DNA of 64,000 nt from Candidatus Woesebacteria bacterium (GTDB lineage Bacteria; Patescibacteriota; Saccharimonadia; Saccharimonadales; EFPC-124). The stretch lies in contig JASFQB010000004.1 in the NCBI GenBank assembly GCA_050115675.1, positions 71,601-135,600 of the forward strand, read 5' to 3'. The notes under the pieces are model-generated. The model searched no databases. It was given only the letters and a program-made list of their open reading frames with translations, and was not told where the DNA came from. This document shows, in pieces, positions 2,500 through 19,817 of the stretch (positions are counted from its first letter, which is position 1; each line of letters starts with the position of its first letter). A program made the position numbers and the translations under genes.

Positions 2500-2520
2500 A
2501 ATTTAAAAATTATTTTATAA

Positions 2521-2556: not shown

Positions 2557-2595
2557 ACAGAGCGCGCGTCCACAAAAGACGCTAACTCAGCCCTA

Positions 2596-2952: not shown

Positions 2953-2960
2953 GACAATCT

Positions 2961-3061
2961 CCTTCACTTGCCAAAAGCGCATGGGCGTTAGGCCCACAAG
3001 CTTTCAGCATCTGGATGGCGCCCTTCACTTGCTCAAAATCACATGGGCATCAGGCCCACAG
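2961..3061 (-). repeat. two imperfect 40-nt direct repeats in the 5' leader of the 2596-2952 gene
   Basis: Unit 1 (2961-3000) is CCTTCACTTGCCAAAAGCGCATGGGCGTTAGGCCCACAAG. Unit 2 (3022-3061) is CCTTCACTTGCTCAAAATCACATGGGCATCAGGCCCACAG. Each contains a TGGGC-N5-GCCCA palindrome. Unit 1 supplies the RBS. Confidence 0.8.
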
Positions 3062-6296: not shown

Positions 6297-7646
6297 ATGT
6301 CATCTAGTAAACGCCGCGCCTATATTGTGACAGATTTAGGCTTTGGAGATGCAGGCAAGGGGAGTGTTGTTGACTACTTAACTCGACAAGCCCCGCCCGG
6401 CAAAACACTTGTGGTTCGCCATAATGGAGGAGCACAGGCTGCGCACAACGTCGTAACTCCAGATGGCAGACACCATAGGTTTTCGCAATTTGGATCAGGA
6501 TCTTTTGTGCCAGGCACAAAAACGCATCTTTCGCGCTTTATGGTGGTAGATCTTTTTACTCTGCACGACGAAGCAAACGAACTTGCCGCGTACCACGGCA
6601 TGTCTGACATTGTACAGCGACTTACAATCGACAAAGACGCTTTACTTGTAACGCCACACCAGCAAGCAGCAAACAGGCTGCGCGAACTTATTCGCGGCAT
6701 TCACAGACATGGATCTTGTGGCATGGGAATTGGCGAAGCCATGTACGACATGCTAAACCACGCCGATGCTAGTTTGCGTGTTGGGGACATTTTTAGCCCA
6801 AGCAAAATGTATCGTCGGTTAGAATTGCAAAGACAGCTAAAGATTGATATCTTTAAGCCATTGCTTAGCCGTCTAACTGCAGACGCGCGCGCACGAATGG
6901 AGTGGACGCTACTCAAAAACACATCAGACGAAATTGCCTCGTTTTACAGCGCCATGGCATCGCGGCTTAGGATTGTACCGCTAGACCATATCGAGCAGGC
7001 GATTTGCGACAATGATCAGGTAATTTTTGAAGGAGCACAAGGCGTACTTCTTGACGAGTGGCGTGGATTTCATCCATACACTACATGGAGCACAACCACA
7101 CACAGCAATGCCCAAACTTTGCTTACCGAAGCCAACTATGATGGCGAAATAATTAAGCTAGGGCTTTTGCGTGCATACGCCACGCGTCATGGCGCAGGTC
7201 CGCTACCAACCGAAGATGCAGCACTAACACAAAAAATTCAAGACACACACAACGAATTTGGTCTGTGGCAGAGGCATTTTAGGGTAGGTTATTTTGACGC
7301 AGTTACTGCGCGCTACGCCTTAAATGTTACAGGCGGAGTTGACCAGTTAGTACTTACCTGCGTTGACAGGCTTTACGGCCAGCAAAACTGGAAAGCTGCA
7401 ACCAAATACAAGGCAAGCTCAACAGAGGTAGTCGATCTTAGACCTGGCAGATATACAGATTTAAGACACCAGACAGAATTAACTCGATTGCTGCAAAGTT
7501 GCCAGCCACAATACAAAGTAGCAGTTTCTGGCAGATTTAGTCCAAAAAGAATAAAAAGCTACGTTGATTTTGTAGAATCAGAAATTGGACATAAAGTTGG
7601 GCTAATCTCGACCGGACCAACCGCCAATAACAAGCATGCAATTTAG
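6297..7646 (+). CDS. divergent adenylosuccinate-synthetase-like (PurA-family) ligase
   Basis: Start chosen at MSSSKRR (AAGGAGGAG RBS); the track start at 6228 lies upstream. PurA-like blocks present: GFGDAGKGSVVDYL, VVRHNGGAQAAH, FEGAQGVLLDEW, RAYATRHGAGPLPTE. The GATTGRRRR-type loop is replaced by FGLWQRHFRVGYFD. Confidence 0.7.
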   Translation: MSSSKRRAYIVTDLGFGDAGKGSVVDYLTRQAPPGKTLVVRHNGGAQAAHNVVTPDGRHHRFSQFGSGSFVPGTKTHLSRFMVVDLFTLHDEANELAAYHGMSDIVQRLTIDKDALLVTPHQQAANRLRELIRGIHRHGSCGMGIGEAMYDMLNHADASLRVGDIFSPSKMYRRLELQRQLKIDIFKPLLSRLTADARARMEWTLLKNTSDEIASFYSAMASRLRIVPLDHIEQAICDNDQVIFEGAQGVLLDEWRGFHPYTTWSTTTHSNAQTLLTEANYDGEIIKLGLLRAYATRHGAGPLPTEDAALTQKIQDTHNEFGLWQRHFRVGYFDAVTARYALNVTGGVDQLVLTCVDRLYGQQNWKAATKYKASSTEVVDLRPGRYTDLRHQTELTRLLQSCQPQYKVAVSGRFSPKRIKSYVDFVESEIGHKVGLISTGPTANNKHAI

Positions 7647-7724: not shown

Positions 7725-7801
7725 AGGGGTGTAGCTCAGTTGGCCAGAGCATCGGTCTCCAAAACCGAGGGCCGGGGGTTCGAGTCCCTCCACCCCTGCC
7801 A
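7725..7801 (+). tRNA. trnW: tRNA-Trp (anticodon CCA), CCA end encoded
   Basis: Manual cloverleaf. Acceptor AGGGGTG/CACCCCT. D arm GCTC-AGTTGGCCA-GAGC. Anticodon arm TCGGT-CTCCAAA-ACCGA. T arm GGGGG-TTCGAGT-CCCTC. Discriminator G followed by CCA. Confidence 0.9.
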
Positions 7802-9370
7802 TATAGGACGTAATTGATTTATGAGCTCGGAATTGCCCTCACTAACAGATGTAGCGAGGGCTTTTTCAAAAGTTCGGTTAGCCATTTTTTGACCTTCCAA
7901 AAATTGAACCGTTTCGGCTGTCTTTTTGGCGATTGCATTTGTGAGTTTTGTGTATGTAACAGATAGAGCATCGCCGTTTGATACTAGTTTTTCGAATAGT
8001 TCGGTTATTATGACGCGTTTTTGTTCTGGAACTTTGCTGGCGTAAATCTCAGCGGCCTTCTGAGACAATTCTAAAACCGTCAGACCGCCTTCAAAGTCTG
8101 ATTGCTGTTGTTCTTCAAGTTTGTTGAGCTGATCAATCAAAGAGGCTTTTTCGGCCATGAGCTGATCGTGCTTAGCTTCATAGCGTTCTTTGGTGATGTC
8201 GCCAGCTAGCTTGTCGTCGTAAAGCGTTTCGTCCATGAGCTCAATGCGGCTCAGTTTACTATTGACGAGCGTTACACTTTGCTCGTAGTACTGGGCGCCG
8301 TTTTGAGACTCTGCGCGAATTGCCTCGCTTGTCCAGGCAATGATTTCCTGTGATGGGCTTACGAGCTTTTGTAGCGTCTCTAAGACAAGTTCCTCGGCAC
8401 GATCTTCGCGCAGGAACTTAAGACCCTTGCAGGCAGCATCCTTGCGCTGGCACGTACCGTAATAGCGCTCTTTGTGACGTTCCCATGTTACGGTTGCGCC
8501 ACAGTTTTGACAGCGAATCATATTCTTCAGCACGGGATTGTGTCGAGCCCGCAGCATTGGTTGCTTGTTGTGTAGCTTCTTTTGTACTGCGTTGAATAGC
8601 TCTTTACTGATAAGCGGTTCCTGCGCTCCGGGATAGTCTTTGCCGTCAAAATGGTTGATACCAATGTAAAATGGGTTGCTGAGCATTTTGTGGACGTAGC
8701 TCTTGCTATGCGGTCGGCCTTTGCGCGTCACTATGCCGTTATCCTTCATGAACTCGGTAATAGTGAGAACTGAATGGTTTGGTTCTAGGTATATGCGGAA
8801 CACTTTGCGCATGATACTTGCGGTGGCCTTGTCGATAATATGAATACGCTTACCACCGCGCGTAACGGTGATATAGCCTGGCGGCGGTGGCGCAGGCAGC
8901 CACCCTTGTGCCAGCTTCTCGGCCCAGCCTTTCATTGCTTCTTCACGCAAGTTATCTGTGTACTTTTTGGCAACCGATAAATGGATGTTCCACATAAACT
9001 TAACGTCAGACTTGGCATTCTTGTGTACGAGTAAGTTTTCCTTCACGGCATGTAGTCGCCGATCCTCGTCTTGCTCAAGCCAGTCGTCGATAGCTACTGC
9101 ATCACGCATGTTGCGTGTAAATCGGTCAGTCTTTTCAACGGCCAAGTGATAGATGTCATTCTTGGAGATGTAGTGCAGCATTTCTGTGAAGACCTTACGA
9201 CTTTGCTGCTTGGACGCCGTCTCGGCAATCTTGAATACTTTGACGACCTTAAAGCCTTTTGCTTGGCAGTATCCAGTAAGTAACTTCACCTGTGAGTCAA
9301 GCGAATAGCCCTCATCCTCTTGCGCCTTGCTTGATACACGCGCAAGTATTACTGCGTTAGTTTGCCCCAT
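7736..9370 (-). CDS. large serine recombinase (integrase)
   Basis: N-terminal resolvase domain with AVILARVSSKAQ (catalytic Ser). Also a recombinase domain, a zinc ribbon CQNCGATV...C...C and a long coiled-coil. The last ~22 codons are antisense to tRNA-Trp (..WQGWRDSNPRPSVLETDALAN). Confidence 0.9.
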   Translation of the reverse strand: MGQTNAVILARVSSKAQEDEGYSLDSQVKLLTGYCQAKGFKVVKVFKIAETASKQQSRKVFTEMLHYISKNDIYHLAVEKTDRFTRNMRDAVAIDDWLEQDEDRRLHAVKENLLVHKNAKSDVKFMWNIHLSVAKKYTDNLREEAMKGWAEKLAQGWLPAPPPPGYITVTRGGKRIHIIDKATASIMRKVFRIYLEPNHSVLTITEFMKDNGIVTRKGRPHSKSYVHKMLSNPFYIGINHFDGKDYPGAQEPLISKELFNAVQKKLHNKQPMLRARHNPVLKNMIRCQNCGATVTWERHKERYYGTCQRKDAACKGLKFLREDRAEELVLETLQKLVSPSQEIIAWTSEAIRAESQNGAQYYEQSVTLVNSKLSRIELMDETLYDDKLAGDITKERYEAKHDQLMAEKASLIDQLNKLEEQQQSDFEGGLTVLELSQKAAEIYASKVPEQKRVIITELFEKLVSNGDALSVTYTKLTNAIAKKTAETVQFLEGQKMANRTFEKALATSVSEGNSELINQLRPIWQGWRDSNPRPSVLETDALAN

Positions 9371-9422
9371 ACCCTCTCCTTGTTATTATTTTATCAGCTA
9401 TGAGTGCGCGTAGGGCGTGCAA

Positions 9423-9587
9423 CTAGGCTTCTTCGGCAAGAGCCTTAAAGAACCGCACTAATGATCGCCCGATCTCTAGCGCTTCGTCATAAGTGACAGG
9501 TTTGCACTGTTCTTTTTCAAGGATAAGCCGCAAGGCCTCTATCCTCTCTGGTTCTAGCGCAATGATGTCACCCTCATGACTACTCAT
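9423..9587 (-). CDS. small acidic protein (54 aa) upstream of the integrase; possible directionality or accessory factor
   Basis: Below the track cutoff. My translation: MSSHEGDIIALEPERIEALRLILEKEQCKPVTYDEALEIGRSLVRFFKALAEEA. Same strand as the integrase, divergent from the XRE gene. RBS is weak. Confidence 0.35.
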   Translation of the reverse strand: MSSHEGDIIALEPERIEALRLILEKEQCKPVTYDEALEIGRSLVRFFKALAEEA

Positions 9588-9653
9588 AGTCCCATTTTAA
9601 CAAGTACTGAATGAAAAAGCTACTGTGAGTAGTCATTTTCTTATCCACAGGTG

Positions 9654-9662
9654 TGCTATAAT
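9654..9662 (+). promoter_or_regulatory. extended -10 promoter giving a leaderless XRE transcript
   Basis: TGCTATAAT ends 7 nt before the ATG at 9670. The palindrome CTACTgtgAGTAG (~9621-9633) lies upstream. Confidence 0.55.
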
Positions 9663-9669
9663 CTAGACA

Positions 9670-9891
9670 ATGAATATCGAATATCAGCAAGTCTTTGGCA
9701 AACGTGTGCGCGAGCTTCGTAAGGAGCGCGGACTAAGCCAGGTTGAGCTTGCTTCTAAGGTTGGCATTGACCGCAGCTACATGGGTTTCCTGGAGCGCGG
9801 CGAGCGCAACCCTAGTCTTGAGATGATTGCAAAGATCGCTGAAGCTCTGAGCGTGACGCCCGACGAGCTGCTAAAGAAGTCAGCTAAATAG
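9670..9891 (+). CDS. XRE-family helix-turn-helix regulator
   Basis: FGKRVRELRKERGLSQVELASKVGIDRSYMGFLERGERNPSLEMIAKIAEAL is a classic HTH_3 pattern. Confidence 0.85.
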   Translation: MNIEYQQVFGKRVRELRKERGLSQVELASKVGIDRSYMGFLERGERNPSLEMIAKIAEALSVTPDELLKKSAK

Positions 9892-9922
9892 CGCTTTATA
9901 GTTCTTTTTGAGACTAAGGCAA

Positions 9923-9955
9923 ACTGTCACCAAGCACGGTGACAGTATTTCTATT
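9923..9955 (+). terminator. terminator after XRE gene
   Basis: ACTGTCACC-aagcac-GGTGACAGT (9 bp) followed by ATTTCTATT. Confidence 0.55.
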
Positions 9956-10066
9956 GTCGTAAGGTGTTATACTCAAAATAGCGTATCCCTTACCTATGAA
10001 ATAAATTGGAGTAGGAGGGGTAGGCAAACTATTCTATCTCATCGCCAAACTACAGACTCAAACACT

Positions 10067-10843
10067 ATGACCACTCTTCCCTCAATAACCACCAAACAAC
10101 AAGAAATACTAAAACTAATTTATAGATATAGATTCCTCAACAGAACTCAAATACAAACATTACTAAAACACAAAGATAAAAGACGGATAATAAGCTGGCT
10201 CAAAGACTTACGAGAGAAGCAGTATGTAGATTGGCGATATGATGCAACCAACTTCATCGCTAAAAGCCAGCCAGCAATATACTACCTATCTATAAATGGT
10301 ATTCGGTATTTGCGCGAGACTGGTGAGTATTCGAGTGAAGAGCTGCGGAAGCGGTATAAGGAGCCCGGCCGGACGCAAGTTTTTATTGATAGGTGTCTGC
10401 TGATCGCGGATTGTTGCATAGTCCTACAGACTAAAAGCACAGACGAACTGGACTACTCATACGTGTTGCCTGCCGACTATGCCGATCCCGACAGTCCACA
10501 ACACTTCTTGAATGAGCTAAAGCCCCACCTATTCTTTGCAAAACGGCATAACGGTGAAGCCGTCAATTATGCGTTGGAGAACTTTGAGCTTACCTTGCCG
10601 CGCTATCAGCTGCGCCAACGAATAAAGGACTACGTAGAATATATTGATATTTGGGATGAAGAGAACGGGTCTGCGCCCATAGCCTTATTTATTTGCGCTA
10701 CTACAGCCGACCTGCTCTACGTTAAGCGTCGCGCTAAAAAGCAGATCGAAGAAAGTGGCAACGACGATATAGTAATTCGTGCTGCAACCTTTGAGAAAGT
10801 TAAAGCTACTGGCGTTGCTAGCGCAATCTGGGAGGATACATAG
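10067..10843 (+). CDS. replication-relaxation (Replic_Relax-like) family protein
   Basis: Start chosen at MTTLPSITTKQQEILKLIYRYRFLNRTQIQTLL. This wHTH-like N-terminus is typical of the plasmid replication-relaxation family as I recall it. The track start at 9908 overlaps the terminator. Confidence 0.55.
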   Translation: MTTLPSITTKQQEILKLIYRYRFLNRTQIQTLLKHKDKRRIISWLKDLREKQYVDWRYDATNFIAKSQPAIYYLSINGIRYLRETGEYSSEELRKRYKEPGRTQVFIDRCLLIADCCIVLQTKSTDELDYSYVLPADYADPDSPQHFLNELKPHLFFAKRHNGEAVNYALENFELTLPRYQLRQRIKDYVEYIDIWDEENGSAPIALFICATTADLLYVKRRAKKQIEESGNDDIVIRAATFEKVKATGVASAIWEDT

Positions 10844-10883
10844 CCTCCTGGGCAGTTTCTCGTCCTACCCAGGACGCTGATGA

Positions 10884-11141
10884 CTACTCGGCTGTCACGA
10901 TCTCCACCCAGTCAACTCGGCCAAGCGCCGCGTTTACAAAGTCGGCAATCAGACCAACCGGCTCAAACTCATACAGCTCTTGCACGAGCTCTTCGAGCTG
11001 TTCTGCTTTACTATGCACACTGCCGTCCTCGGCTTTTAGCGCCACCAGCGCGTTGTAGCTTGCTTGCTCATTGTTGAGCCAAAGCGCCACTAACCACGTC
11101 TCGTAATTGCTCCAACCGTTGTATCCTGTCGTTTCACTCAT
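10884..11141 (-). CDS. small acidic protein (85 aa) of a type seen on plasmids and phages
   Basis: N-terminal NGWSNYETWLVALWLNN motif. GAGGAG RBS. Lies downstream of the DUF3768 gene on the same strand. Confidence 0.5.
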   Translation of the reverse strand: MSETTGYNGWSNYETWLVALWLNNEQASYNALVALKAEDGSVHSKAEQLEELVQELYEFEPVGLIADFVNAALGRVDWVEIVTAE

Positions 11142-11167
11142 CGTCTAACTCCTCAAAAAAACTTAGT

Positions 11168-11203
11168 TAAAACAAAACCCGGAAGCCGAACCGACTTCCG
11201 GGT
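11168..11203 (-). terminator. terminator between the DUF3768 gene and the 85-aa gene
   Basis: ACCCGGAAG/CTTCCGGGT stem followed on the minus strand by TTTTGTTTT. Confidence 0.6.
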
Positions 11204-11225
11204 TATACTGAAAAACACCAGTGGA

Positions 11226-11540
11226 CTAATATTCACTGGCGAGCATAACGGTCAGGACTCGCCGACACTTCAACGAAAGCGGGTCCTCTCCGTACTCAAG
11301 TGTCTGATTGTAGTACGATATTTTCCAGAATACCTTTTCGCCAAACCAATGCACGACACCAAAGTCATGTTCACCATACGGATCATTTTCCTCGGTAAAC
11401 TGGTTGAACCGACGAATCTCATCGATCAACCCGCCAAGATCCTCTAATACTTGCACGCCTGGCGTTACCGTAACCCCAAACCCACTACGACGGAACACGT
11501 CATTTTTCATCGCAATCTGAATCGTTTCTTCTGTCTGCAT
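11226..11540 (-). CDS. DUF3768-family protein
   Basis: ENDPYGEHDFG...FWKISYYN...RVLTVMLASEY matches the family signature as I remember it. AAAGGAGG RBS. Confidence 0.75.
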   Translation of the reverse strand: MQTEETIQIAMKNDVFRRSGFGVTVTPGVQVLEDLGGLIDEIRRFNQFTEENDPYGEHDFGVVHWFGEKVFWKISYYNQTLEYGEDPLSLKCRRVLTVMLASEY

Positions 11541-11580
11541 AGCAAACCTCCTTTTAATTCTTATTCCTGAACGGAATCGA

Positions 11581-11699
11581 CCTTCCCGCTCACGGCCGGG
11601 GCAAGGGGTAAATTGGTCGAGTCAAGGTGGAGCGCCTCACCGGACGAACGACCTTGGGTCGGGCGATTTACCCCTTATCATGGAGAGGCAGTGGGAAGG
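11581..11699 (+). other. 119-nt GC-rich imperfect long hairpin (candidate ssDNA promoter, oriT-associated structure or structured RNA)
   Basis: CCTTCCCGCT pairs with AGTGGGAAGG. AAGGGGTAAAT pairs with ATTTACCCCTT. TGGTCGAGTCAAGGT pairs with ACCTTGGGTCGGGCG using three T.G pairs that work only on the plus strand. The right arm carries TTGGGT-16 nt-TATCAT. Confidence 0.6.
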
Positions 11700-11776
11700 C
11701 TAAGCCTTAGCTGTGCCACCAATCTTTGGCTATGAGGTACTGTGGTAATTGGCGAGAATAGTTATAAAATATACAT

Positions 11777-14242
11777 GTGAGGAAAGATAACGAATCCTTT
11801 TTGACTTTTACTCGGAATCGGCCAACTCGTATAGCGTTCGTTGTCGATATCAAGGAAGAAAACGCCTACAGAACGATAGTAGACCTTATTTGTGACGCCT
11901 CAAAAAAGTGGGGTGGTCGTTATTACCAAATTATCCCAGCCGCCAAGGGCACCGTTTCAAAGGTATGGATTGAATACTTAGCGGCATATGACCCCGACCT
12001 AATCTATACCTATTACTCTCTAGCGCCAAAGACGGTGCAACAAATATCGGAAGTCAGCAGCCCCCTCGCGTTCATGAATGCTCAATTCAAAGGCGTGCCG
12101 AATCATCCCTTCGACCCCGTGGATATTTTTCCAGATAATCGCAACACTGCCATGCTATGGCGAAACCCGGTTCAAACTCCCGAAATATTATCGTTTGACC
12201 TCGGTGGGTTTTCGCCCACCGCACCACAATATATTACTGATTTCGTCATGCTGAACTTCGGCACCATCCAGAACGACCTCGCCAATATTAACGCCATAAA
12301 ACAATCGCAAGTAATACTTACAAAGCCGCCAGCTCAGACGGAAGAACAGTTTTTGGAGGCGATGAAGAAGCTCGACGAATGGAATAGGCGGATTTATCCC
12401 ATAGAGTATTCGATGATCCCAGGGCTGACTTATGAATCAGATAGGGATTTAACAAAGGAAACAACGACTGTATATATTGGTGACGAGCCCCTAGACCTGA
12501 TCTATTATTGGAATGACGCGCTGCTGCGCCCTGACTGGCTTACGCACCAGAAAAACCAGGCCATTTTGCCTACAAAGTTCATTGAGGACGAGAAGCTAAG
12601 GCTCGCGGTACGAGGCTGGCTGACCAAGTTCATCAGACAGGAGAACGGTAACTCAAGTCTTCAACGAGTAGAAATTGTTTCGGCTTCCGTAAGCCTTACT
12701 AAGCTGCAAGCATACGCCAAACAGCTACTTGATGGCACTTATATCTTCCATCAGGAATCAAAAGTGACCGTGCCGATCATCCCCAAATACTCCACGCACA
12801 TAGCTACTACGCCCGACATGACATCATTTAGCGTTTCGGGAGATTCATTCACGGTTAATGTTCCCTCGATTGATGTCGTACAGGGAGTAATGGGCGGCCA
12901 AAAGTGGATGACCGACGTGTTAATCGAGCGAAAAGACCACAATGAGCATCGCCAGCCACTAAAAGATTTTTGGCTTCAGTTGCCGCTCAACAATAGCCTG
13001 ACCCTGTTATTAACAAACCGTACGCGCGCCGCACGAATAAATCGTTTGGGATTTTTGTCGGTGCCGCTTTCGCGAGATGTAGATGACCTGCGGCTAACCG
13101 TAAATATTCCAGATGGTGCAAGGATAGCCGAATCAATACTCCGTGCGGACAAAAACAGCATTTTCTATAATGGCGACTTACGACAAGGAAAAGAAGACTA
13201 TCCGTTTTCAGGCGCTAAAAGTTCGACAGCCGGAAAGGCGCTTCGTGGAGCAATACATCTATTCAGAGAGCTTCCCGAAGCGGCAAACTTCTTTCAAAGT
13301 GATTATTGGCGTGACATTTTTATGATTATGGCTGGACAAGATCCATTAGGCAGTCCAAAGACGAAGCAAGCCCTAGAGAACGCTATAAAGAAGAATTTTA
13401 GCAAGGTAAAGCAAACGATCGAGAATGACGTAAGGAAAGGGTTGGCGACTACAAAGCAGCCCGTATCTCAAAAAGTGGTAGATTTTTGGTCTAATAAAAT
13501 TGGATACTTAGCCTCCGATCTTCGAGCAAGAACCGACGTACAGGAGATAGGGTTTTTTGATGATGTTCTTAAAAATAAAGTAGCGGAAGCCAATAAAAAC
13601 GGTGATAAGGAACGATTCGCCGAGTTAAGAGAACGTATGCTTGGCACCCTTGACTGGCTTATCGCAAATGGCATTTTCAGTATCGGCACCCTTAACCACT
13701 GTCGGAGATGTGGATTAAAAGAGTGGCATTCTGTCGATGACCTAAAAACCGACAATGCTTGTCGCGGGTGCGGCAATTCCTTTACTGTTGCCCCTGAACA
13801 GCAGTGGTGGTATAAGCTCAATAGCCTGATATCGAGCGAGGGCGGCATTTACAATCAGGTTCCACTCATCTTAGCTCTCGGTGAGCTTTATGAAGGTTCA
13901 ACATCCTCCTTCATGTACTTCCCGCCGGTCGATGTCTACACTGGCAAAGGTTATAGATTACTAACCGATTTAGATATTTTTGCGATTGTGGATGGCAAGC
14001 TCGTAGTCGGTGAGGTTAAAAACAGCGCAGCGCTATTTGACGATGAAGAAATCGATAAGCTGTTAAAGGCGGCCGCTCGGCTCAAACCTTGCCGTGTCGT
14101 GCTTTTTGCGCCAGACAAACCTAATCAGGCCCTTTTAGACAAAGTCAGATTGTTGAATCAACAGTATTCGGCAAAAGGAATTACAGTTGAATGGCTGAAC
14201 ATGACTCATCTCTGGGGCATGGGTAGTCTTTGGAACATATAA
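11777..14242 (+). CDS. large hypothetical protein (821 aa) with C-terminal zinc ribbon and PD-(D/E)xK-like nuclease motif
   Basis: CRRCGLKEWHSVDDLKTDNACRGCGNSF is followed by LTDLDIFAIVDGKLVVGEVK (D...ExK). The N-terminal ~650 aa are unrecognised. Start codon is uncertain (GTG at 11777, directly after TATAAAAT). Confidence 0.6.
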   Translation: MRKDNESFLTFTRNRPTRIAFVVDIKEENAYRTIVDLICDASKKWGGRYYQIIPAAKGTVSKVWIEYLAAYDPDLIYTYYSLAPKTVQQISEVSSPLAFMNAQFKGVPNHPFDPVDIFPDNRNTAMLWRNPVQTPEILSFDLGGFSPTAPQYITDFVMLNFGTIQNDLANINAIKQSQVILTKPPAQTEEQFLEAMKKLDEWNRRIYPIEYSMIPGLTYESDRDLTKETTTVYIGDEPLDLIYYWNDALLRPDWLTHQKNQAILPTKFIEDEKLRLAVRGWLTKFIRQENGNSSLQRVEIVSASVSLTKLQAYAKQLLDGTYIFHQESKVTVPIIPKYSTHIATTPDMTSFSVSGDSFTVNVPSIDVVQGVMGGQKWMTDVLIERKDHNEHRQPLKDFWLQLPLNNSLTLLLTNRTRAARINRLGFLSVPLSRDVDDLRLTVNIPDGARIAESILRADKNSIFYNGDLRQGKEDYPFSGAKSSTAGKALRGAIHLFRELPEAANFFQSDYWRDIFMIMAGQDPLGSPKTKQALENAIKKNFSKVKQTIENDVRKGLATTKQPVSQKVVDFWSNKIGYLASDLRARTDVQEIGFFDDVLKNKVAEANKNGDKERFAELRERMLGTLDWLIANGIFSIGTLNHCRRCGLKEWHSVDDLKTDNACRGCGNSFTVAPEQQWWYKLNSLISSEGGIYNQVPLILALGELYEGSTSSFMYFPPVDVYTGKGYRLLTDLDIFAIVDGKLVVGEVKNSAALFDDEEIDKLLKAAARLKPCRVVLFAPDKPNQALLDKVRLLNQQYSAKGITVEWLNMTHLWGMGSLWNI

Positions 14243-14253
14243 GAGCCTAGTGG

Positions 14254-15597
14254 CTATAATTTTGGCTGAATAATTTGCTCAGGCGGTTTATCGTCATGAT
14301 TCCACTCGACCGAAGCTGAACCGTTAATCGACTTCTCCCATCCTTCTGAGCTTTTGGAAGGATAGCCTTGCGGTCGATTTATGCCATCGTAGAGCCATAC
14401 GTCAGCGACATGCGACGTGCCTCCGACGCCGAAGTAGTAGCCATTTGGCATTTGTCGCCAAGCAAACCACGCAAGTTTATCACCCCGTACCCTCATATGC
14501 ACCCCATGATCATCATTGGATAGCCCCGATAGTGCCGCTTCAATCGGAAAATCTGGATTGTAGTGATGGTGAATGTTCTTAAACTGAGCCGTCTGCATGT
14601 AGAGTAAGCTTCTTAGGCTAGTTTTTGATTCGTGATATTCTCGACGATCGATTTGCAAACCCCCGTTATCCACGCCCCGTACGCCCGTCATCTTACGCAT
14701 ATGCTTTTGGTAGTCGCGCATTTTTCGGTTCTGTATGTTAACGGCCTTCTTGAACTCTTGAAGGCAAATTGACGCTTCGCGATAGTTGCTTGTTTGGGCA
14801 AGCTGTTGTCGCCAAAGACCTATAAAATTGCCGAACAGCCCGAGACGAACATTTAAATGTACGATGATCGCAAGCCATACATGCCGCGGCATTTGCCTTT
14901 TATCATTGAAGCTGGGCAGTGAATACGCAAGAGATTCATAACGCATTACTATGGCGAAAATGTAGACTGTCGGCAGTAACGCCAGTGGTAACAGTATCGA
15001 GAGGAGTAATTCTTCGGTGGATTGGTGGACTTCCTTCTCGGACCAATTTGAGATTATCGTGGCAGTTGTGCGCCATACAAGCCATATGCCTAGTATTGCG
15101 AGTACCCCGTCAACTAATCGCTTCGCCGGTTTTTGCTCTGGCTCCCTTGCTGCAACGCTCAAGATTGAGAGAAGCGAAATAATAGGCAGCAATATTAACT
15201 CACCAACAAGCGAGAATGGTTCAAGGCCGATATAGATAACAAGCAGTGCCGAGACGCCAACCGCATCGCGAAGAGTCTTCTTTATTAGGCTGTCGGCGTC
15301 TTTGGCGGTACTCGCATTCATAAACATAGGCACGCCGACAAAAAGGATGATGACGACAGTGTCGATGAATAAGCTGTCGTGCCATAATTTGAGATGGTCC
15401 GCTAGCGTAACTACACCTATTGAGTAAGCAAAATACACAGTGAACGGTACGATAATCTGCCATTTTGCCATCGATCTTAGAACATCAAGCAACGCTGGCC
15501 ACGCTACACGACGTACTTTAGGCCACACTGCTAGGCCAATAACTATAATCACCGACCATATCAGCGTAGCGATTTGACGATTATCTAACTCAAACAT
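14254..15597 (-). CDS. polytopic membrane protein (447 aa) with soluble C-terminal domain
   Basis: Multiple hydrophobic segments in the first ~260 aa. Begins 26 nt downstream of the ATPase gene on the same strand, so probably co-transcribed. Confidence 0.6.
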   Translation of the reverse strand: MFELDNRQIATLIWSVIIVIGLAVWPKVRRVAWPALLDVLRSMAKWQIIVPFTVYFAYSIGVVTLADHLKLWHDSLFIDTVVIILFVGVPMFMNASTAKDADSLIKKTLRDAVGVSALLVIYIGLEPFSLVGELILLPIISLLSILSVAAREPEQKPAKRLVDGVLAILGIWLVWRTTATIISNWSEKEVHQSTEELLLSILLPLALLPTVYIFAIVMRYESLAYSLPSFNDKRQMPRHVWLAIIVHLNVRLGLFGNFIGLWRQQLAQTSNYREASICLQEFKKAVNIQNRKMRDYQKHMRKMTGVRGVDNGGLQIDRREYHESKTSLRSLLYMQTAQFKNIHHHYNPDFPIEAALSGLSNDDHGVHMRVRGDKLAWFAWRQMPNGYYFGVGGTSHVADVWLYDGINRPQGYPSKSSEGWEKSINGSASVEWNHDDKPPEQIIQPKL

Positions 15598-15623: not shown

Positions 15624-18320
15624 CTACAAGCTATGCACCTTTGATTCAGTTTGTGCTTCTTGCTGCTTATTAATTTTTCGAGCAGGTGGCCTTTTCCTTA
15701 CCTCGCCCGTTATTGTAAGTAGCTGCTCTATCTGTTTCTCGACGGAAGCTTTAGGCTTAGCGTAGAGCTTCCGGCTGCTTTTGACAACTTGCTTTGCAGT
15801 GCTACTAGATTCATCTACTTCAAGAGGTACGGTCTGCCCCGAAAATGCGTCCTCACTCTCGTCACCTGTAACCTTCATGTAGAAATGATACGGCGCAAGG
15901 TTCACAATGTCACCCTTTTCAACCTCGGGCTTCATGTATGGCAATATGAAGTCCTCGTCCTCTGGGTTAGCCTTAAGGCAAATAATCGTTGCTGCGTTCC
16001 CGGCGATTACTTTCACTAGGTCTTTATCTTCCATTTGTGCGATGTTCTGGTGTGACACGATCAGTGAAACATGGAACTTGCGCCCTTCGCTGGTGATTGC
16101 GCCAAACTGTGGCGTAGCAAAGTTTTGGAACTCATCTACGTACACAAAGAAGTCGCGCCGTTTCTTTTCAGGTATCTTGGTCCGCTGGTATGCTGCCATC
16201 CAGATGAGCGCCGTCAGAATTGTGCCGAAGAATTCACTCTGGTCTTCACCGATGTCACCTTTAGATAGGTTCACGAGCAGGATTTTACCTTCATTCATAA
16301 TGTCAGCAATTCGCACAGTCGTTTCTTCTTGCAGCAGGATGTGCCGCGACATTTTGCTAGTAATGAAATGCCCCAATCTATGGGTAAGTGGCGCAGTAGC
16401 AGCCGACATTTGCATGCTACCCATCATCTTGAATTCTTTTTCCCAGAATTGTTTGAGTACGGGGTCTTTAAGCGTTTTAGCTACTTCTTTTTGGTATTTC
16501 TTGTCGGTTAGTAATTGCTGCAAGGTGTAGAGACTGGGCTTTGGAGTTTGCAACGCCGTAAGCGTAGTATTGCGCAGGATGTGTTCCATGCGCGGCCCCC
16601 ATTGTGCTTCGTCGGACAGTTTCTTGAATACAGACAAGACGGCACTGGTAATCCAATCGTGTTTGCTGTCTTCATTTTCAAAATCAATACCAGGGTCGAG
16701 GATGTTCAGCCCAACGGGATGGTCACGATCGGATGGATCGAGTACGACTACATCTTTACGGCGGTTTTCTGGCACGATGGCAAGTAACTCGCGTAACATA
16801 TCACCATGCGGATCAAGGACGGCTAGGCCTTTGCCGTTGAGCATATCTTGGTAGATGGAGCTTTTCAGCAGGGTTGTTTTACCTGTACCAGTTTTTCCAA
16901 TGATGTAGGTGTGCTTTTGGCGCTGCTCTAACGTCATACCAATTTCTTGTATCTCGCCACCAAAGAGGTTTGCGCCAACAGTAACATCCAGTTTTGTTTC
17001 GCTGTGCTTAATAGATAGTGGCGTGGCTAGCTCACGACTGCGGCTCTTCACTAGGCCTTCTGTTTTGGTGAGATCGGTGTTTGGGAAGTGATAGAGGTCG
17101 GCTAGTTCTGAGGCGGAGAGGATAGTTTGCTGGGTGAAGATGTGGCGAAGTAGTGAACGATTGCGGAACCGAGCGATCCATCTATCCGCAGTATTGATGA
17201 ACGGCAAACAGCTTCGAGTTTCAATCCGCTGGTAGGTGCTAGAAAACGTGTCAAACGAAGACGTAATGGCATTGATGCGCGTCTGGTTTTCACTGGCGTC
17301 CTGCGAAGCAATAAGGACTCTCATAGATATCTCGAACAACTGTTGATCTAGTTTTTGCTTAATGGCTTTGCCAAGCTCCTGCTCGTATGGATTGTCGGCT
17401 GGTTTCTTGTGGCCACTTTTCCAATCCGCAGGCAGATCATTGGTCGTAATCGCCTCGATTACTCCTGCAACGATCTTTGCGCCCATTGCTATAAGCCAAA
17501 ACGGTGCTAGTAATGCCCGAAGCATAATGCGCGGCGCGTTAATCTTGTACTTGGTTAACTTTGGCGTAAGCTGCTTGTTGAGCGCGATTCTGTGCTCGGT
17601 GTTTCGTGTGTGTCGCAGTTCATTAGGGTGCGTGTTGCTAAAAACAGGTACGGCAACTATCTGAAAGGCAATTAGCGCATCGGTTGGCAGGCTGCGCATG
17701 TGGCCAGTGAGGTACGCTATAGGATCATGCTCGTCCAAGGTTTTGTGGTCGCCTAGCGGTAGCACAAAGTCGCTTGCAAGTTTTAGCTCGGCTATGCTGG
17801 TGGGAATGCTTCCCGAGTCGGGCAAGTAGTCATTAACCTCTGCGATTTTAAGGCCGGGCAGATATGACAATAACGTGCGTTTTACGGTTTCAACCTCGCG
17901 CTTGGGTATACGGATGACGTACCGGATACCTCCGTCGCGAGTCGCAACCAGCTCCAAAGAATACGGTTGCTTGCGTGCGGCCAGATTATCCCAAAAGCCG
18001 TAGTATTTCACCATGCTGCGCATCAGGATATGCAACTGCTCGGTCGCATAGGCAGATTTAGAAGTGTCTGCCGGAAATGTGAGCTGCAAAAAAGTATACT
18101 CAGGCTCCGCGTTGCCAATGCCAAAACGACGCAGGGCAAAGGATAAAAACGTACGAGAGTATTGCCCGAGTTTTATAAGGAGGTAGATGATAACGTAGGC
18201 GACGCCAAATTCAAACAGAAATGCACCAATGACAACAACCAGTGTCCAGCCGTCACTTAAGTGATGTTCTTGCGTATAGCGAACGGGGCCGTTAATTATT
18301 GTGTCCAGAATACCCGGCAT
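15624..18320 (-). CDS. membrane-anchored TraD/VirD4/FtsK-HerA-superfamily P-loop ATPase (coupling-protein or DNA-translocase-like)
   Basis: N-terminal TM segments. Walker A YIIGKTGTGKTTLL. Walker B FFVYVDEFQNF. SLIVSHQNIAQM also present. Confidence 0.7.
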   Translation of the reverse strand: MPGILDTIINGPVRYTQEHHLSDGWTLVVVIGAFLFEFGVAYVIIYLLIKLGQYSRTFLSFALRRFGIGNAEPEYTFLQLTFPADTSKSAYATEQLHILMRSMVKYYGFWDNLAARKQPYSLELVATRDGGIRYVIRIPKREVETVKRTLLSYLPGLKIAEVNDYLPDSGSIPTSIAELKLASDFVLPLGDHKTLDEHDPIAYLTGHMRSLPTDALIAFQIVAVPVFSNTHPNELRHTRNTEHRIALNKQLTPKLTKYKINAPRIMLRALLAPFWLIAMGAKIVAGVIEAITTNDLPADWKSGHKKPADNPYEQELGKAIKQKLDQQLFEISMRVLIASQDASENQTRINAITSSFDTFSSTYQRIETRSCLPFINTADRWIARFRNRSLLRHIFTQQTILSASELADLYHFPNTDLTKTEGLVKSRSRELATPLSIKHSETKLDVTVGANLFGGEIQEIGMTLEQRQKHTYIIGKTGTGKTTLLKSSIYQDMLNGKGLAVLDPHGDMLRELLAIVPENRRKDVVVLDPSDRDHPVGLNILDPGIDFENEDSKHDWITSAVLSVFKKLSDEAQWGPRMEHILRNTTLTALQTPKPSLYTLQQLLTDKKYQKEVAKTLKDPVLKQFWEKEFKMMGSMQMSAATAPLTHRLGHFITSKMSRHILLQEETTVRIADIMNEGKILLVNLSKGDIGEDQSEFFGTILTALIWMAAYQRTKIPEKKRRDFFVYVDEFQNFATPQFGAITSEGRKFHVSLIVSHQNIAQMEDKDLVKVIAGNAATIICLKANPEDEDFILPYMKPEVEKGDIVNLAPYHFYMKVTGDESEDAFSGQTVPLEVDESSSTAKQVVKSSRKLYAKPKASVEKQIEQLLTITGEVRKRPPARKINKQQEAQTESKVHSL

Positions 18321-19493: not shown

Positions 19494-19522
19494 TTGCAAA
19501 GAAAATTCGTTTAGCCTATTAT
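19494..19522 (+). promoter_or_regulatory. sigma70-type promoter in the 370-bp intergenic region
   Basis: TTGCAA (19494-19499), 17 nt, TATTAT (19517-19522). Confidence 0.5.
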
Positions 19523-19599
19523 AAAAATAAGCTTCGCAATTGAAGCGAACAATTTAGAAGGCCTAACCCGTATCTTTTAGATATGGTATGGTCTAAAAT

Positions 19600-19638
19600 C
19601 CTGACAGATACTGATCCCGTCGTTCAGCATCTGTCAGG
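19600..19638. repeat. inverted repeat CCTGACAGAT / ATCTGTCAGG (extends to 14 bp with one mismatch)
   Basis: Arms at 19600-19609 and 19629-19638, with inner CTGA/TCAG. A third CCTGACAG copy lies at 19723-19730. Confidence 0.75.
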
Positions 19639-19817
19639 TCATGCGCCGAAAGGTTCATGGGGTGAAAGCCCGCTGGCGGCGGGTTCTGTGTTTTAAAACT
19701 TCGTCGCCATAATACAAGAAAGCCTGACAGCAATTATGACGAAACGACTAAAGGCAGTCGCTGCGACTGCTATTTATTTTGCGCTTTTTTCTGGCAAACA
19801 TTTGGTGGAGTGTGGCT

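Follow-up and report, generated by a model that had tools for sequence, protein, structure and literature searches.

An imperfect hairpin that precedes a small DUF3768 gene in a putative mobile element of a CPR/Patescibacteria genome is probably a promoter that works only in single-stranded DNA (ssDNA) and drives the adjacent gene upon entry of the element into a new cell, i.e. a new, sequence-unrelated class of Frpo-like ssDNA promoter. It belongs to a family that, to judge from comparison across loci, is strongly conserved, previously undescribed and carried by mobile elements of the ultrasmall CPR/Patescibacteria; no earlier description was found in the literature on DUF3768, the apical motif of the hairpin or ssDNA promoters in CPR. 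Throughout, the window is the entire stretch of DNA that was analyzed, 64 kb in length, to which all coordinates refer.

A strand-biased hairpin upstream of a DUF3768 gene

The features of the hairpin and of the genes that it precedes are:

11581-11699, folded by the + strand, the template strand of the DUF3768 gene: imperfect hairpin of 119 nt, delimited by folding, covariance model and family alignments
11581-11590, + strand: left arm of the basal stem, pairing with 11690-11699 in the DNA minimum-free-energy (MFE) structure
11621-11632, + strand: left half of the apical module, GTCAAGGTGGAG, with its TCAAGGT paired to the -35 region
11654-11659, + strand: -35-like TTGGGT, with the right apical half ACGACC (module 11648-11659) directly before it
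11660-11675, + strand: spacer of 16 nt, base-paired with the left arm
11676-11681, + strand: -10-like TATCAT in the right arm, all but its first T facing an internal loop
11682-11689, + strand, non-template arm: discriminator/start region, forming the lower part of the internal loop, with duplex resuming ~6 nt past the -10
11541-11597, - strand: predicted 5' UTR of the RNA templated by ssDNA, as placed by the hairpin geometry
11226-11540, - strand: DUF3768 gene, 104 aa (Pfam PF12599, E 4.8e-24; 318 homologues)
10884-11141, - strand: DUF7249 gene (Pfam PF23907), downstream of DUF3768

The hairpin occupies the intergenic region between the DUF3768 gene and an ORF of 821 aa on its other side (11777-14242, + strand), and the covariance-model match extends over 11578-11702. 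An earlier note, made from the letters of the window, had drawn an extended imperfect hairpin with defined base and middle stems and three T.G pairs in its upper stem, and held that the plus strand folds better. All of these details hold. In the DNA MFE structure 11581-11590 (CCTTCCCGCT) pairs with 11690-11699 (AGTGGGAAGG), the middle stem joins 11603-11615 to 11664-11676 and holds AAGGGGTAAAT / ATTTACCCCTT, and the upper stems, which pair 11617-11620 with 11659-11662 and 11622-11628 with 11651-11657, include three T.G wobbles. As DNA, the + strand folds at -32.3 kcal/mol (z -5.5; 0/200 shuffles equally good) versus -22.0 kcal/mol (z -2.3) for the - strand; as RNA the corresponding values are -67.1 (z -6.25) and -47.8 kcal/mol (z -3.2), and the covariance model scores 125.5 bits on + against 37.9 bits on -. 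In a scan of the whole 64 kb in windows of 120 nt, the hairpin is the top folding site apart from a GC-rich stretch at 2500-2900, and its strand bias is the largest among the 40 best-folding windows listed. Its G+C is 0.62 versus 0.48 in the 1-kb surroundings.

Neither the covariance model nor a motif search found further copies within the 64-kb window. A LOOT RNA 8 kb away was considered as a second copy and rejected: it is a small RNA of another kind, with several hairpins and a duplex promoter of its own. We also set aside integron attC sites, IS200/IS605 hairpins and CTX-type XerCD sites, since neither a matching core sequence nor a cognate recombinase is present.

A covarying hairpin family in CPR elements

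Iterative nhmmer searches recovered 124 copies of the hairpin at 102 of 160 loci with DUF3768 homologues, in Saccharibacteria, Berkelbacteria and other CPR groups. Every one of the 124 copies lies on the template strand of the gene that it precedes. Secondary copies (22 in 21 loci) are always on the same strand as the primary one, giving 2-3 direct copies per such locus. The family profile stops at the hairpin ends. DUF3768 loci without the family show no consistent template-strand folding bias; in those outside the CPR (Alphaproteobacteria, Cyanobacteriota and others) the family is absent and the bias inconsistent. No blastn match to 9400-14300 of the window was found among the 72,556 plasmids of PLSDB, and searches of known plasmids with the relaxase (tblastn), an IMG/VR hairpin and its gene gave nothing usable.

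The structure appears to be under selection, its stems covarying across the family. In the covariance-model alignment pairing holds in 93.4% of cells, and compensatory changes are seen at 21 of 28 pairs; covariation scores 0.498, versus 0.165 for shuffled alignments (0/500 reach the observed value) and 0.045-0.105 for slid controls. Plain MAFFT alignments retain compensatory pairs (10/15 and 17/28). The basal helix (helix 1) takes part, both sides having changed in three of its four pairs, and pairs of the spacer stem covary too. At paired columns G.T occurs 85 times versus 12 for A.C, and the template strand folds better in 110 of 113 family sequences (mean -30.3 vs -25.3 kcal/mol). The earlier note had proposed folding of both strands, covariation in homologues and a search of Rfam as checks on its reading: the strands fold unequally in the window and in nearly all homologues alike, conservation and covariation are strong, and the whole window scanned against Rfam 15 has no gathering-level match at the hairpin, which speaks against a known, unrelated RNA.

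These data also bear on the possibility that the hairpin acts as a structured RNA made off the + strand. Such an RNA could imitate an open promoter in the manner of 6S RNA, form the leader of the rightward gene, regulate the DUF3768 leader in antisense, or be a small RNA. In favor of it are the high stability of the fold as RNA (-67.1 kcal/mol, z -6.25), the G.U wobbles, which favor the + strand, and the parallel of 6S RNA, itself a mimic of an open promoter; covariation would look alike for RNA and ssDNA. However, a permissive Rfam 15 scan of 11400-11900, with E up to 10, gave as its best match a microRNA model at 16.5 bits against a cut-off of 101 bits, and no Rfam 6S model matches the hairpin; the family profile has no conserved promoter 5' of the hairpin, and a terminator scan of the window found no terminator 3' of it. 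Moreover, the DNA-type -35 and -10 hexamers described below would be a coincidence in an RNA, the copies follow gene starts on the opposite strand, and the far-side gene is co-oriented with DUF3768 in 39 of 102 loci. Hence we regard a structured RNA as very improbable.

Promoter-like elements arranged as in an open complex

The right arm carries, as the earlier note had pointed out, TTGGGT and TATCAT separated by 16 nt, with the -10-like hexamer at an internal loop; in the MFE structure all but the first T of TATCAT is looped. Taken by itself the -35 of the window is weak: it matches the consensus at three of six positions, and a simple promoter scanner makes no call. Its fourth base is a G, whereas the family has A at this position in 90% of members (TTGA), so that the promoter of the window is convincing only through its family. 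Over the 104 unique sequences, TTG of the -35 is 100% conserved (a pattern also present in the MAFFT alignment) and T-A-n-n-n-T of the -10 is 99% conserved. The -35 takes forms like TTGATG, TTGATA and TTGACG; the commonest -10 forms are TATACT (33) and TATAAT (30), with TACAAT (9) and others following. These near-invariant bases of the right arm are the key positions for sigma-70. The spacer measures 15 nt in 58 sequences and 16 nt in 42. The optimum for E. coli sigma-70 is 17 nt, and the short spacer therefore counts against the promoter reading.

Across the family, pairing probability differs between these elements. The TTGA of the -35 is paired at 0.96-0.99 and the spacer at a mean of 0.89, whereas the A at -11 stands at 0.10 and positions 3-6 of the -10 hexamer at 0.17-0.44. 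The successive bases past the -10 have values of 0.30, 0.21, 0.20, 0.23, 0.38, 0.59, 0.62 and 0.72. As modeled, a fold with a paired -35 and an unpaired -10 plus ~6 nt resembles a pre-melted open complex aimed at DUF3768. The Frpo/ssi-type geometry that the earlier note had suggested, with the + strand as template for the leftward gene, is supported by comparison across the family, which conserves it.

The hexamers could equally be read as an ordinary duplex promoter of the divergent rightward gene, with the left arm as a palindromic operator for a repressor. They do read rightward in duplex DNA, a divergent gene lies 20-160 nt away in 63 of 102 loci, and GTCAAGGT...ACCTTGAC is palindromic. 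Yet a protein operator does not predict that ~110 nt of freely varying stems covary, and neither the excess of G.T over A.C nor strand-biased folding would make sense in a duplex. Genes on the far side lack conservation, only one homologue of the 821-aa protein occurring among the hairpin loci, and in the 39 loci with a co-oriented gene such a promoter would fire antisense into it. A rightward element in the duplex state, as the earlier note had stated, is right as far as it goes; it is not the whole story because the far-side gene is so often co-oriented. As the full explanation, a duplex promoter is the least credible of the readings considered here, and a most improbable one.

The most conserved part of the family is the apical module, GTCAAGGTGGAG...AC[GT]ACCTTGA, which extends beyond the mimicry of a -35. 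TGGAG in its left half is 99-100% invariant over the 104 unique sequences, and the invariant columns recur in the MAFFT alignment. The sequence upstream of the -35 is a G+C-rich conserved apex, GGAGCGCC...GGACGAACGACC, and the invariant apex (GTCAAGGTGGAG...ACCTTGA) occurs in elements that range from 30% to 70% G+C. About half of the IMG/VR hairpins that bear the apical motif have longer stems and a loop without TAnnnT. The reading as a promoter accounts only partly for the motif GTCAAGGTGGAG...ACCTTGA.

Genes behind the hairpins

The DUF3768 gene of the window has a Shine-Dalgarno sequence, AAGGAGG, at 11547-11553, 6 nt ahead of its ATG. Across the family the gap from hairpin to start codon is about 24-45 nt (median 27 nt), or 15-60 nt at its widest, and 65 of 69 members have a Shine-Dalgarno-like motif. 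Near the hairpin-linked genes, the strongest sigma-70 match is carried by the template rather than the coding strand. Behind the secondary copies, seven of ten genes encode DUF7249, and an AAA_14 ATPase is also found. Among IMG/VR sequences, copies found by motif stand ahead of a ParB-like gene and of ArdC-N-like genes, one of these downstream genes matching an anti-restriction-protein PHROG (E 2.7e-14). By their domains, the downstream genes are thus predicted to be of the establishment type. The AlphaFold model of DUF3768 is confident (pLDDT 93); a fold search of the PDB with it gave no match (best E 0.019, TM 0.31), and searches of the PDB by sequence and of NCBIfam, PADLOC and PHROGs gave none either.

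A relaxase-bearing element, and alternatives tied to transfer

Further features of the window concern the element in which the hairpin lies:

7725-7798, + strand: tRNA gene (Rfam tRNA, 70 bits)
7736-9370, - strand: large serine recombinase (Pfam Resolvase, Recombinase, Zn_ribbon_recom)
9908-10843, + strand: putative relaxase of the Replic_Relax (MOBC) type, convergent with DUF3768 (Pfam PF13814, 31.4 bits)
15624-18320, - strand: type IV coupling protein, TrwB/TraG-like (Pfam TrwB_AAD_bind, TraG-D_C)

The tRNA gene and serine recombinase make up the left end of an element integrated in a CPR genome, and the coupling protein marks that element as transferable. PF13814 corresponds to MobC (PMC5357655). 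Homologues of Replic_Relax occur within 4 kb in 36 of 47 hairpin loci with full flanks, 55 of 57 being convergent, and the relaxase gene forms part of a conserved module with the hairpin.

This linkage raises the alternative that the hairpin is an oriT, or another site bound or nicked by a MOBC-type relaxase, where a hairpin or cruciform is recognized and the apical motif is the target. Besides the proximity of the relaxase gene, whose stop codon even abuts a hairpin in one locus (L181), a comparable structure belongs to the prototype MOBC oriT: in the plasmid pAM373 an inverted repeat of 142 bp separates the coupling-protein gene from the relaxase gene. Francia and Clewell reportedly placed the nick of pAD1 inside such an inverted repeat in 2002. 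Moreover, the stretches preceding the relaxase genes hold no other obvious oriT: examined in five loci and in the window, they showed no pAD1-like repeat, and no oriT was recognized. The oriT reading keeps some weight because the relaxase gene is so tightly linked to the hairpin.

Several observations nevertheless speak against it. The 22 extra direct copies in 21 loci, including two copies 5 kb apart in L181, are hard to reconcile with an oriT because relaxase-mediated recombination between them would be expected to delete the intervening DNA. Every copy lies just upstream of a gene start, and the relaxase gene has no fixed direction with respect to the hairpin. The apical motif is 99-100% invariant, whereas the relaxases are only ~21-30% identical, a combination more easily explained by a universal host partner than by a relaxase that co-evolves with its target. 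The repeat of pAM373 is perfect (arms 100% complementary), strand-symmetric (-57.6 vs -54.6 kcal/mol on the two strands) and followed by short direct repeats; the hairpin of the window has none of these properties, with no flanking direct repeats within 11400-11950, and the covariance model matches nothing in pAM373. Finally, an oriT gives no reason for a TTGA and a TAnnnT set 15-16 nt apart with the -10 looped. Overall, we consider an oriT quite unlikely.

A further alternative connected with transfer is a single-strand origin of the ssoA or ICEBs1 sso1 type, in which the folded strand would recruit RNA polymerase only for a short primer of the complementary strand, once the element has been transferred or has replicated as a rolling circle, and the downstream gene would be expressed incidentally. 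It would equally fit a strand-specific ssDNA fold with a -35 and a -10, and a relaxase gene close to the hairpin; further, DNA synthesis is primed at Frpo itself (Masai and Arai 1997, cited by PMC11541004 and PMC12672017). However, the hairpin occurs in 2-3 copies per element, each 15-60 nt ahead of a start codon with a ribosome-binding site; transcription is directed out of the hairpin into the gene, away from the loop; and the apex lacks a loop motif of the TAGCGT type. As the principal function, a single-strand origin is unlikely, if the least so of the alternatives weighed here. It is compatible with an ssDNA promoter, one not excluding the other.

A proposed mechanism: transcription from the folded strand

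We propose that the hairpin acts as a promoter when the + strand of the element turns single-stranded, most likely as the conjugatively transferred strand, or by a second route as a rolling-circle intermediate generated by the relaxase of the element. Bases 11581-11699 would then fold back, rebuilding as duplex both the -35 (TTGGGT, or TTGAnn across the family) and the spacer, and leaving unpaired the non-template -10 (TATCAT, or TAnnnT across the family) together with ~6 nt beyond it, up to where duplex resumes at about +1. The host RNA polymerase with a sigma-70-type factor would bind the folded strand with no need to melt DNA. Copying the 5' arm, in which 11581-11590 would serve as both the downstream duplex and the template for the first transcribed bases, it would exit through the base of the hairpin and yield a leftward mRNA. 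Its start is predicted at about 11596 +/- 2, opposite 11688, and the mRNA would have a leader of ~56 nt with the AAGGAGG ribosome-binding site and encode DUF3768, perhaps together with DUF7249. This RNA could also prime synthesis of the complementary strand, as is reported of Frpo.

Once the complementary strand is made, the hairpin would be lost. DUF3768 should then go silent, because the - strand has a -35 (TTGACT) but no -10, and in the duplex DNA the same hexamers would face the 821-aa gene. The single-stranded state, the identity of the transferred strand, polymerase binding, the start site and the shut-off are what we infer; the sequences themselves show the fold and its strand bias, the covariation, the conserved hexamers with their pairing state, and a fixed placement and direction with respect to the downstream genes. 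Precedents are the ssDNA promoters validated in IncF and IncI plasmids, including classes without mutual sequence homology (PMC12672017, PMC11541004). A point against the model is pLS20, in which the transferred strand is the non-template strand, ruling out an ssDNA-promoter reading there (PMC8708921).

Implications

In the literature consulted, ssDNA-only promoters are experimentally established only in enterobacterial IncF/IncI plasmids, and candidates elsewhere rest on sequence similarity or on folds of single sequences (PMC11541004, PMC12672017). The present family adds a candidate class, unrelated in sequence, from a very distant lineage, and its fold, paired -35 and unpaired -10 are backed by covariation and conservation over more than 100 diverged copies rather than by one fold. 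It thereby offers a clean and testable model for a promoter that is opened in advance, points to DUF3768 and DUF7249 as candidates for a role in establishment or anti-defense, and provides a covariance model with which such elements and their early genes can be located in CPR genomes.

The combination of a putative ssDNA promoter with genes for a MOBC-type relaxase and a coupling protein in tRNA-integrated elements would argue for travel as a single strand. More tentatively, and with less confidence than we attach to the promoter itself, we suggest that elements of the Patescibacteria may pass through a defined single-stranded stage, that they may conjugate via MOBC relaxases and their own coupling proteins on a chromosomal secretion system, and that the hairpin may serve as a strandedness switch with its apex as a docking site. 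If so, real DNA conjugation would take place in these bacteria, although the current view of the phylum is that most of its type IV secretion systems have been adapted to other tasks; uptake of ssDNA by these naturally competent cells would be another way to reach the single-stranded stage. The switch would direct transcription leftward from ssDNA into establishment genes (DUF3768, DUF7249, ArdC-like, ParB-like) and rightward from the duplex, and the invariant apex would be a dock for RNA polymerase or for an ssDNA-hairpin factor common to several phyla.

Comparison with known systems

Among the known systems, 6S RNA shares with the hairpin a long stem whose central bubble gives it the look of an open promoter, but it is an RNA without sequence identity to the -35/-10 and is encoded by a single chromosomal gene. 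The MOBC oriT regions (pAD1 oriT2 and pAM373) are alike in having an inverted repeat of 120-170 nt near genes for Replic_Relax and a coupling protein. They differ in that the pAM373 repeat is placed between those two genes, whereas the hairpin of the window is imperfect and strand-biased, carries promoter hexamers and belongs to a multi-copy family.

The single-strand origins of the ssoA type and sso1 of ICEBs1 are strand- and orientation-specific ssDNA hairpins that are read by the host RNA polymerase and lie near a relaxase or Rep gene, so that strand specificity, promoter-like elements and gene neighborhood are all shared with the present family. In the ssoA type the loop holds the hexamer CS-6 (TAGCGT), and primer synthesis ends in the loop. 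In contrast, the hairpin apex has no CS-6-like motif and the promoter geometry faces away from the loop; while an sso yields a short primer independently of any gene behind it, each hairpin copy is tied to a start codon with its ribosome-binding site.

Closer parallels are offered by the class 2 (ardA, klcA) and class 3 (M.EcoGIX) ssDNA promoters of pESBL and F, which have no mutual sequence homology and were found by homology-independent mining of hairpins upstream of early-induced operons (PMC12672017). As in those classes, hairpins of the present family precede small genes of the establishment type, one of them anti-restriction-like. Classes 2 and 3 differ from it in phylum and type of element and in the nature of their support: class 2 and 3 have start sites from 5' RACE and induction in RNA-seq, whereas the present family is known from sequence comparison and has a broad support from covariation that is absent from the account of class 2/3 in PMC12672017.

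The closest parallel is with the class 1 promoters, Frpo and ssi1-3, of the leading regions of F and ColIb-P9. These are known to be active, whereas the family described here is known from sequence comparison. It comes from a CPR host and an integrated element with a MOBC relaxase rather than an IncF/IncI plasmid, and has no sequence similarity to any PLSDB plasmid, similarity by BLAST being the criterion of PMC11541004. A G+C-rich invariant apex replaces the A+T-rich UP element used as a criterion for Frpo candidates (PMC11541004), the spacer is 15-16 nt, and the -10 lies in a full internal loop reaching to about +1. The likenesses with the Frpo/ssi hairpins, as the latter are described in PMC11541004 and PMC12672017, extend to the whole design: long imperfect hairpins formed by one strand only, stems that restore a -35 and a -10, the latter imperfectly paired, transcription that leaves the hairpin into genes templated by the folded strand, the possibility of several copies per element ahead of establishment or anti-restriction genes, and an expected silence in the duplex state.

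A strand-biased hairpin upstream of DUF3768

The 119-nt imperfect hairpin that the earlier note had placed ahead of the DUF3768 gene is recovered by folding, with all the pairings named there, including three T.G pairs, present in the minimum-free-energy structure. The features concerned are (window positions):

11226-11540, minus strand (leftward): DUF3768 gene (Pfam PF12599, E 4.8e-24)
11581-11699, plus strand: hairpin, between the DUF3768 start and the 821-aa ORF
11654-11659, plus strand: -35-like TTGGGT, right arm of the hairpin
11676-11681, plus strand: -10-like TATCAT, right arm, 16-nt spacer from TTGGGT
11777-14242, plus strand (rightward): 821-aa ORF, flanking the hairpin on the right

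Folded as DNA, the plus strand reaches -32.3 kcal/mol (z -5.5 against 200 dinucleotide shuffles) versus -22.0 kcal/mol (z -2.3) for the minus strand, and as RNA -67.1 versus -47.8 kcal/mol, in agreement with the strand preference claimed previously. The proposed arrangement of the two hexamers also holds in the computed fold: five positions of TATCAT, the first T excepted, lie opposite an internal loop. When the full 64-kb window was folded in sliding 120-nt segments, the hairpin was the most stable place outside a GC-rich stretch at 2500-2900, and its strand bias is the largest among the 40 best-folding segments listed. The region 2500-3000 (57-72% G+C versus ~45% for the genome) has the strongest predicted folding of the window on both strands, and carries overlapping ORFs of 130-170 aa, also on both strands; it has no Rfam match and its 133-aa ORF no Pfam match. 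A simple sigma-70 scanner makes no call at the hairpin because its -35 matches at just 3/6 positions. Rfam, a check that the note had proposed, holds no family matching the hairpin even at E up to 10.

A hairpin family under selection on one strand

Genome and metagenome collections provided 160 loci with a DUF3768 homologue, which we searched by iterative nhmmer seeded with the window hairpin. This recovered 124 copies in 102 of the 160 loci (113 distinct sequences including the window), every one of the 124 on the template strand of DUF3768. Secondary copies, i.e. those additional to the primary copy ahead of DUF3768, number 22 in 21 loci (one or two extra each), all on the same strand as the primary. 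Among loci with a named organism and enough upstream DNA, all CPR-labelled ones (Saccharibacteria, Berkelbacteria, Howlettbacteria, 'Patescibacteria group') have the hairpin and none labelled Alphaproteobacteria, Cyanobacteriota/Vampirovibrionales, Ignavibacteriales or DPANN archaea does. The window DUF3768 protein has an identical counterpart that NCBI assigns to a Candidatus Woesebacteria genome, and its closest relatives are from Saccharibacteria; its structure model is confident (pLDDT 93), and searches of the PDB by sequence and fold, PADLOC and PHROGs gave no recognisable fold or family function.

In a plain MAFFT alignment of 85 sequences, 10 of the 15 pairs predicted for the upper stem have compensatory changes, and so do 17 of 28 pairs in the 21 closer sequences. 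With a covariance model derived from these 21, the true strand outscores the mirror strand by a wide margin at every locus (125.5 versus 37.9 bits in the window). In its 57 best true-strand matches, standard pairs fill 93.4% of cells (75.3% when shuffled), 21 of 28 pairs have changes on both sides, and the covariation score is 0.498 versus 0.165 for shuffles (0/500 reach it), falling to 0.045-0.105 with partners slid by 1-3 columns; this alignment was fitted to the structure and is therefore flattering, the MAFFT results showing the signal independently of the fitting. The covariation sought by the earlier note in homologues is thus present. Paired columns contain G.T 85 times versus A.C 12 times. 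Alignment-free folding favours the template strand in 110 of 113 sequences (mean -30.3 versus -25.3 kcal/mol), while the 45 DUF3768 loci lacking the family have no consistent strand bias. Judged from these comparisons of sequence, the hairpin structure is under selection, and on one strand.

Promoter-like elements in the shape of an open complex

Column conservation was counted over 104 distinct true-strand sequences and agrees with the MAFFT alignment. Columns at least 90% conserved spell (G)TCAA and TGGAG in the left arm, and AC.A and TTG (100%) with a following A (90%; G in the window) in the right arm; in the -10, the T, A and last T are each at 99%. The -35 hexamers are TTGATG, TTGATA, TTGACG, TTGAGG and similar, and those of the -10 are TATACT (33), TATAAT (30), TACAAT (9), TACGAT (9) and TATCAT (6); the pattern behind this hexamer and spacer tally itself required TTG and TAnnnT, so that their invariance rests on the alignment and column conservation. 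Of the spacers, 58 measure 15 nt and 42 measure 16 nt, both below the canonical 17 nt.

Base-pairing probabilities, averaged over 103 sequences

-35, TTGA: 0.96-0.99
Spacer, mean: 0.89
-10, first T: 0.70
-10, A at -11: 0.10
-10, remaining positions: 0.17-0.44
Five bases after the -10: 0.2-0.4
From ~6 nt past the -10: 0.6-0.7

The profile describes duplex DNA upstream, a bubble reaching from -11 to ~+1, and duplex again downstream: the predicted fold has the geometry of an open promoter complex. Sigma region 2 recognises the flipped-out -11 A and the -7 T of the non-template strand. The Frpo/ssi-like geometry suggested by the note, with the -10 facing an internal loop, is seen in the family at large, where the -35 is paired. 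We consider the family to be probably a single-stranded DNA (ssDNA) promoter of the Frpo/ssi type, i.e. of the kind found in F and ColIb-P9 plasmids, in both function and geometry. Since the hexamers lie on the 3' arm, the 5' arm would serve as template; the polymerase would leave through the hairpin base toward the 5' flank, leftward in the window and into DUF3768. Transcription would start opposite 11688, at ~11596, giving a leader of ~56 nt with AAGGAGG (11547-11553) 6 nt ahead of the DUF3768 ATG.

A structured plus-strand RNA would be compatible with the covariation, but neither a promoter nor a terminator is conserved for it, and DNA-type -35 and -10 hexamers inside it would be a coincidence; we regard it as very improbable. 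An ordinary duplex promoter for the rightward gene is hardly credible: although the hexamers do point rightward in duplex DNA, as the note had stated, and divergent gene starts are nearby in 63 of 102 loci, the far-side gene is co-oriented with DUF3768 in the other 39, where the duplex promoter would fire antisense into that gene. Moreover, conservation does not extend to the rightward genes (for the 821-aa protein, the hairpin loci together yield one homologue), and duplex DNA does not explain ~110 nt of covarying stems with a G.T excess. Dual use, leftward when single-stranded and rightward when duplex, is possible.

Genes behind the hairpins

A co-directional ORF starts a median 27 nt from the hairpin end, and 65 of 69 cases have a Shine-Dalgarno-like motif. 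Within the 220 nt upstream, the best sigma-70 match falls on the template strand (mostly 9-10/12) and not on the coding strand (mostly 8-9), where the apex provides the -35 (TTGACT in the window); sequence inspection past it found nothing -10-like and no evident duplex promoter for DUF3768. Pfam scans of ten ORFs that follow secondary copies gave seven DUF7249, one AAA_14/DUF4143 ATPase and two without a match. A single-strand origin shares with the ssDNA promoter its mechanism, host polymerase reading a folded strand, but would call for no ribosome-binding site or start codon after each copy, and is unlikely; by analogy with Frpo, priming of DNA synthesis may be a second role.

At 11176-11204 (minus strand), between DUF3768 and DUF7249, a G+C-rich stem of 13 bp with a T-run after it has the look of a terminator or attenuator within an otherwise single transcription unit. 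At other loci, DUF7249 is instead preceded by a candidate hairpin promoter of its own.

An apical motif beyond the family

We scanned IMG/VR with an exact pattern of the hairpin tip, GTCAAGGTGGAG-N8-38-ACCTTGA (window 11621-11657), a search blind to gene content. Of 41 loci, ~20 are real hairpins by the covariance model, on contigs of 30% to 70% G+C; several others are coding-sequence coincidences. About half of the hairpins retain TAnnnT 14-16 nt downstream of the motif. In the others (L164, L172, L180, L199, L186, L187, L202, L203) the stem is longer and lacks a -10-like loop; among these, L164 and L172, at 70% G+C, and L180 and L199 have the same apex but no TAnnnT in the loop. This suggests a wider superfamily with a common apex. 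The flanks GGAG and AC[GT]A are conserved beyond the -35 itself, and because about half of these hairpins lack TAnnnT in the loop, the apex may have a role beyond -35 mimicry.

Directly downstream of the IMG/VR hairpins, in the predicted direction, are a ParB-like protein and ArdC-N-like proteins among others; genes of these kinds lie behind the ssDNA promoters of F-like and IncI plasmids (PMC12672017, PMC11541004). In one of these contigs, L181, two copies lie on one strand 5 kb apart:

6806-6935: first hairpin
10952-11761: ArdC-N-like gene (PHROG annotated anti-restriction protein, E 2.7e-14), beside the second hairpin
11821-11944: second hairpin
11942-12769: gene beside the second hairpin

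The second hairpin directly follows a weak gene for Replic_Relax (a putative MOBC-type relaxase) and precedes the ArdC-N-like gene. L181 also encodes a coupling protein, a SMODS cyclase and a lytic transglycosylase.

The host element and the question of an oriT

The window hairpin lies in an element integrated beside a tRNA gene:

7725-7798: tRNA gene
7736-9370, opposite strand to the tRNA gene: large serine recombinase, 544 aa
9670-9891: XRE regulator
9908-10843: Replic_Relax protein
10884-11141: DUF7249
11226-11540: DUF3768
15624-18320: TrwB/TraG-like coupling protein
19560-19671, plus strand: LOOT RNA (Rfam RF03000, 71 bits versus a 46-bit cut-off)
22856-24613: GajA (PADLOC, 542 bits)
24600-26051: GajB (PADLOC, 437 bits)
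26037-26600: Mrr_cat nuclease gene, convergent, after GajB

The last ~20 codons of the recombinase are antisense tRNA sequence, and this overlap, within 7725-9370, marks the integration junction. Replic_Relax (PF13814) is a domain of the MobC/MOBC relaxase superfamily (PMC5357655), and MOBC is the commonest relaxase class in Patescibacteria, often with an adjoining coupling-protein gene (PMC12102498); for these reasons the element looks like an integrative mobilisable one. To the right of the coupling protein are the LOOT RNA, RadC, a ParA-like ATPase and, as cargo, both genes of a complete Gabija defence system (GajA and GajB). The LOOT RNA, upstream of a 159-aa ORF, RadC and the ParA-like gene, has a promoter-like TTGCAA-17-TATTAT at 19494-19522; considered as a relative of the hairpin, it proved unrelated, being a multi-hairpin RNA with GNRA-type loops. 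Inverted repeats at 10842-10878, between the convergent relaxase and DUF7249 genes, and at 9576-9636, flanked by the XRE gene and a small leftward ORF, could each be a terminator, operator or oriT candidate.

That the hairpin is itself the oriT of a MOBC-type relaxase seems quite unlikely. Replic_Relax homologues do lie within 4 kb in 36 of 47 full-flank loci, 55 of 57 are convergent with DUF3768, the weak one of L181 ends right at a hairpin, and no other oriT was recognised upstream of relaxase genes in five loci and the window. In pAM373, a MOBC plasmid, an inverted repeat of 142 bp lies between the genes for the coupling protein and the relaxase, and in pAD1 the nick, by the account of Francia and Clewell in 2002, reportedly falls inside such a repeat. 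However, the arms of the pAM373 repeat are 100% complementary, its two strands fold about equally well (-57.6 versus -54.6 kcal/mol) and short direct repeats come after it, whereas the window hairpin is imperfect, strand-biased and without flanking repeats; the covariance model finds no family copy anywhere in pAM373. Furthermore, a single element can carry as many as three copies in direct orientation, every one at the start of a gene, the position and orientation of the relaxase gene relative to the hairpin vary, and an apex 99-100% invariant beside relaxases ~21-30% identical is easier to reconcile with a universal partner such as RNA polymerase than with a co-evolving relaxase. The MOBC relaxase gene of pAM373 and the co-oriented AcrIIA9-family, PcfJ and ssb genes that follow it (8756-13792) look like a leading-region anti-defence island beside the oriT repeat.

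Comparison with known single-stranded promoters

In the literature consulted, validated ssDNA promoters are described in IncF and IncI plasmids only, in three classes (PMC12672017), and candidates outside these were found by BLAST or motif (PMC11541004). In pLS20 the transferred strand is the non-template strand, overturning the idea of an ssDNA promoter there (PMC8708921). Our literature search returned nothing tying ssDNA promoters, DUF3768 or the apical motif to CPR bacteria. Comparative support for the present family is unusually strong, and the family bears on whether Patescibacteria conjugate DNA at all (cf. PMC12102498). The hairpin region has no sequence similarity to PLSDB plasmids and lacks an A+T-rich UP element, which sets it apart from the Frpo/ssi sequence family; it is like Frpo and ssi in its geometry and proposed function.
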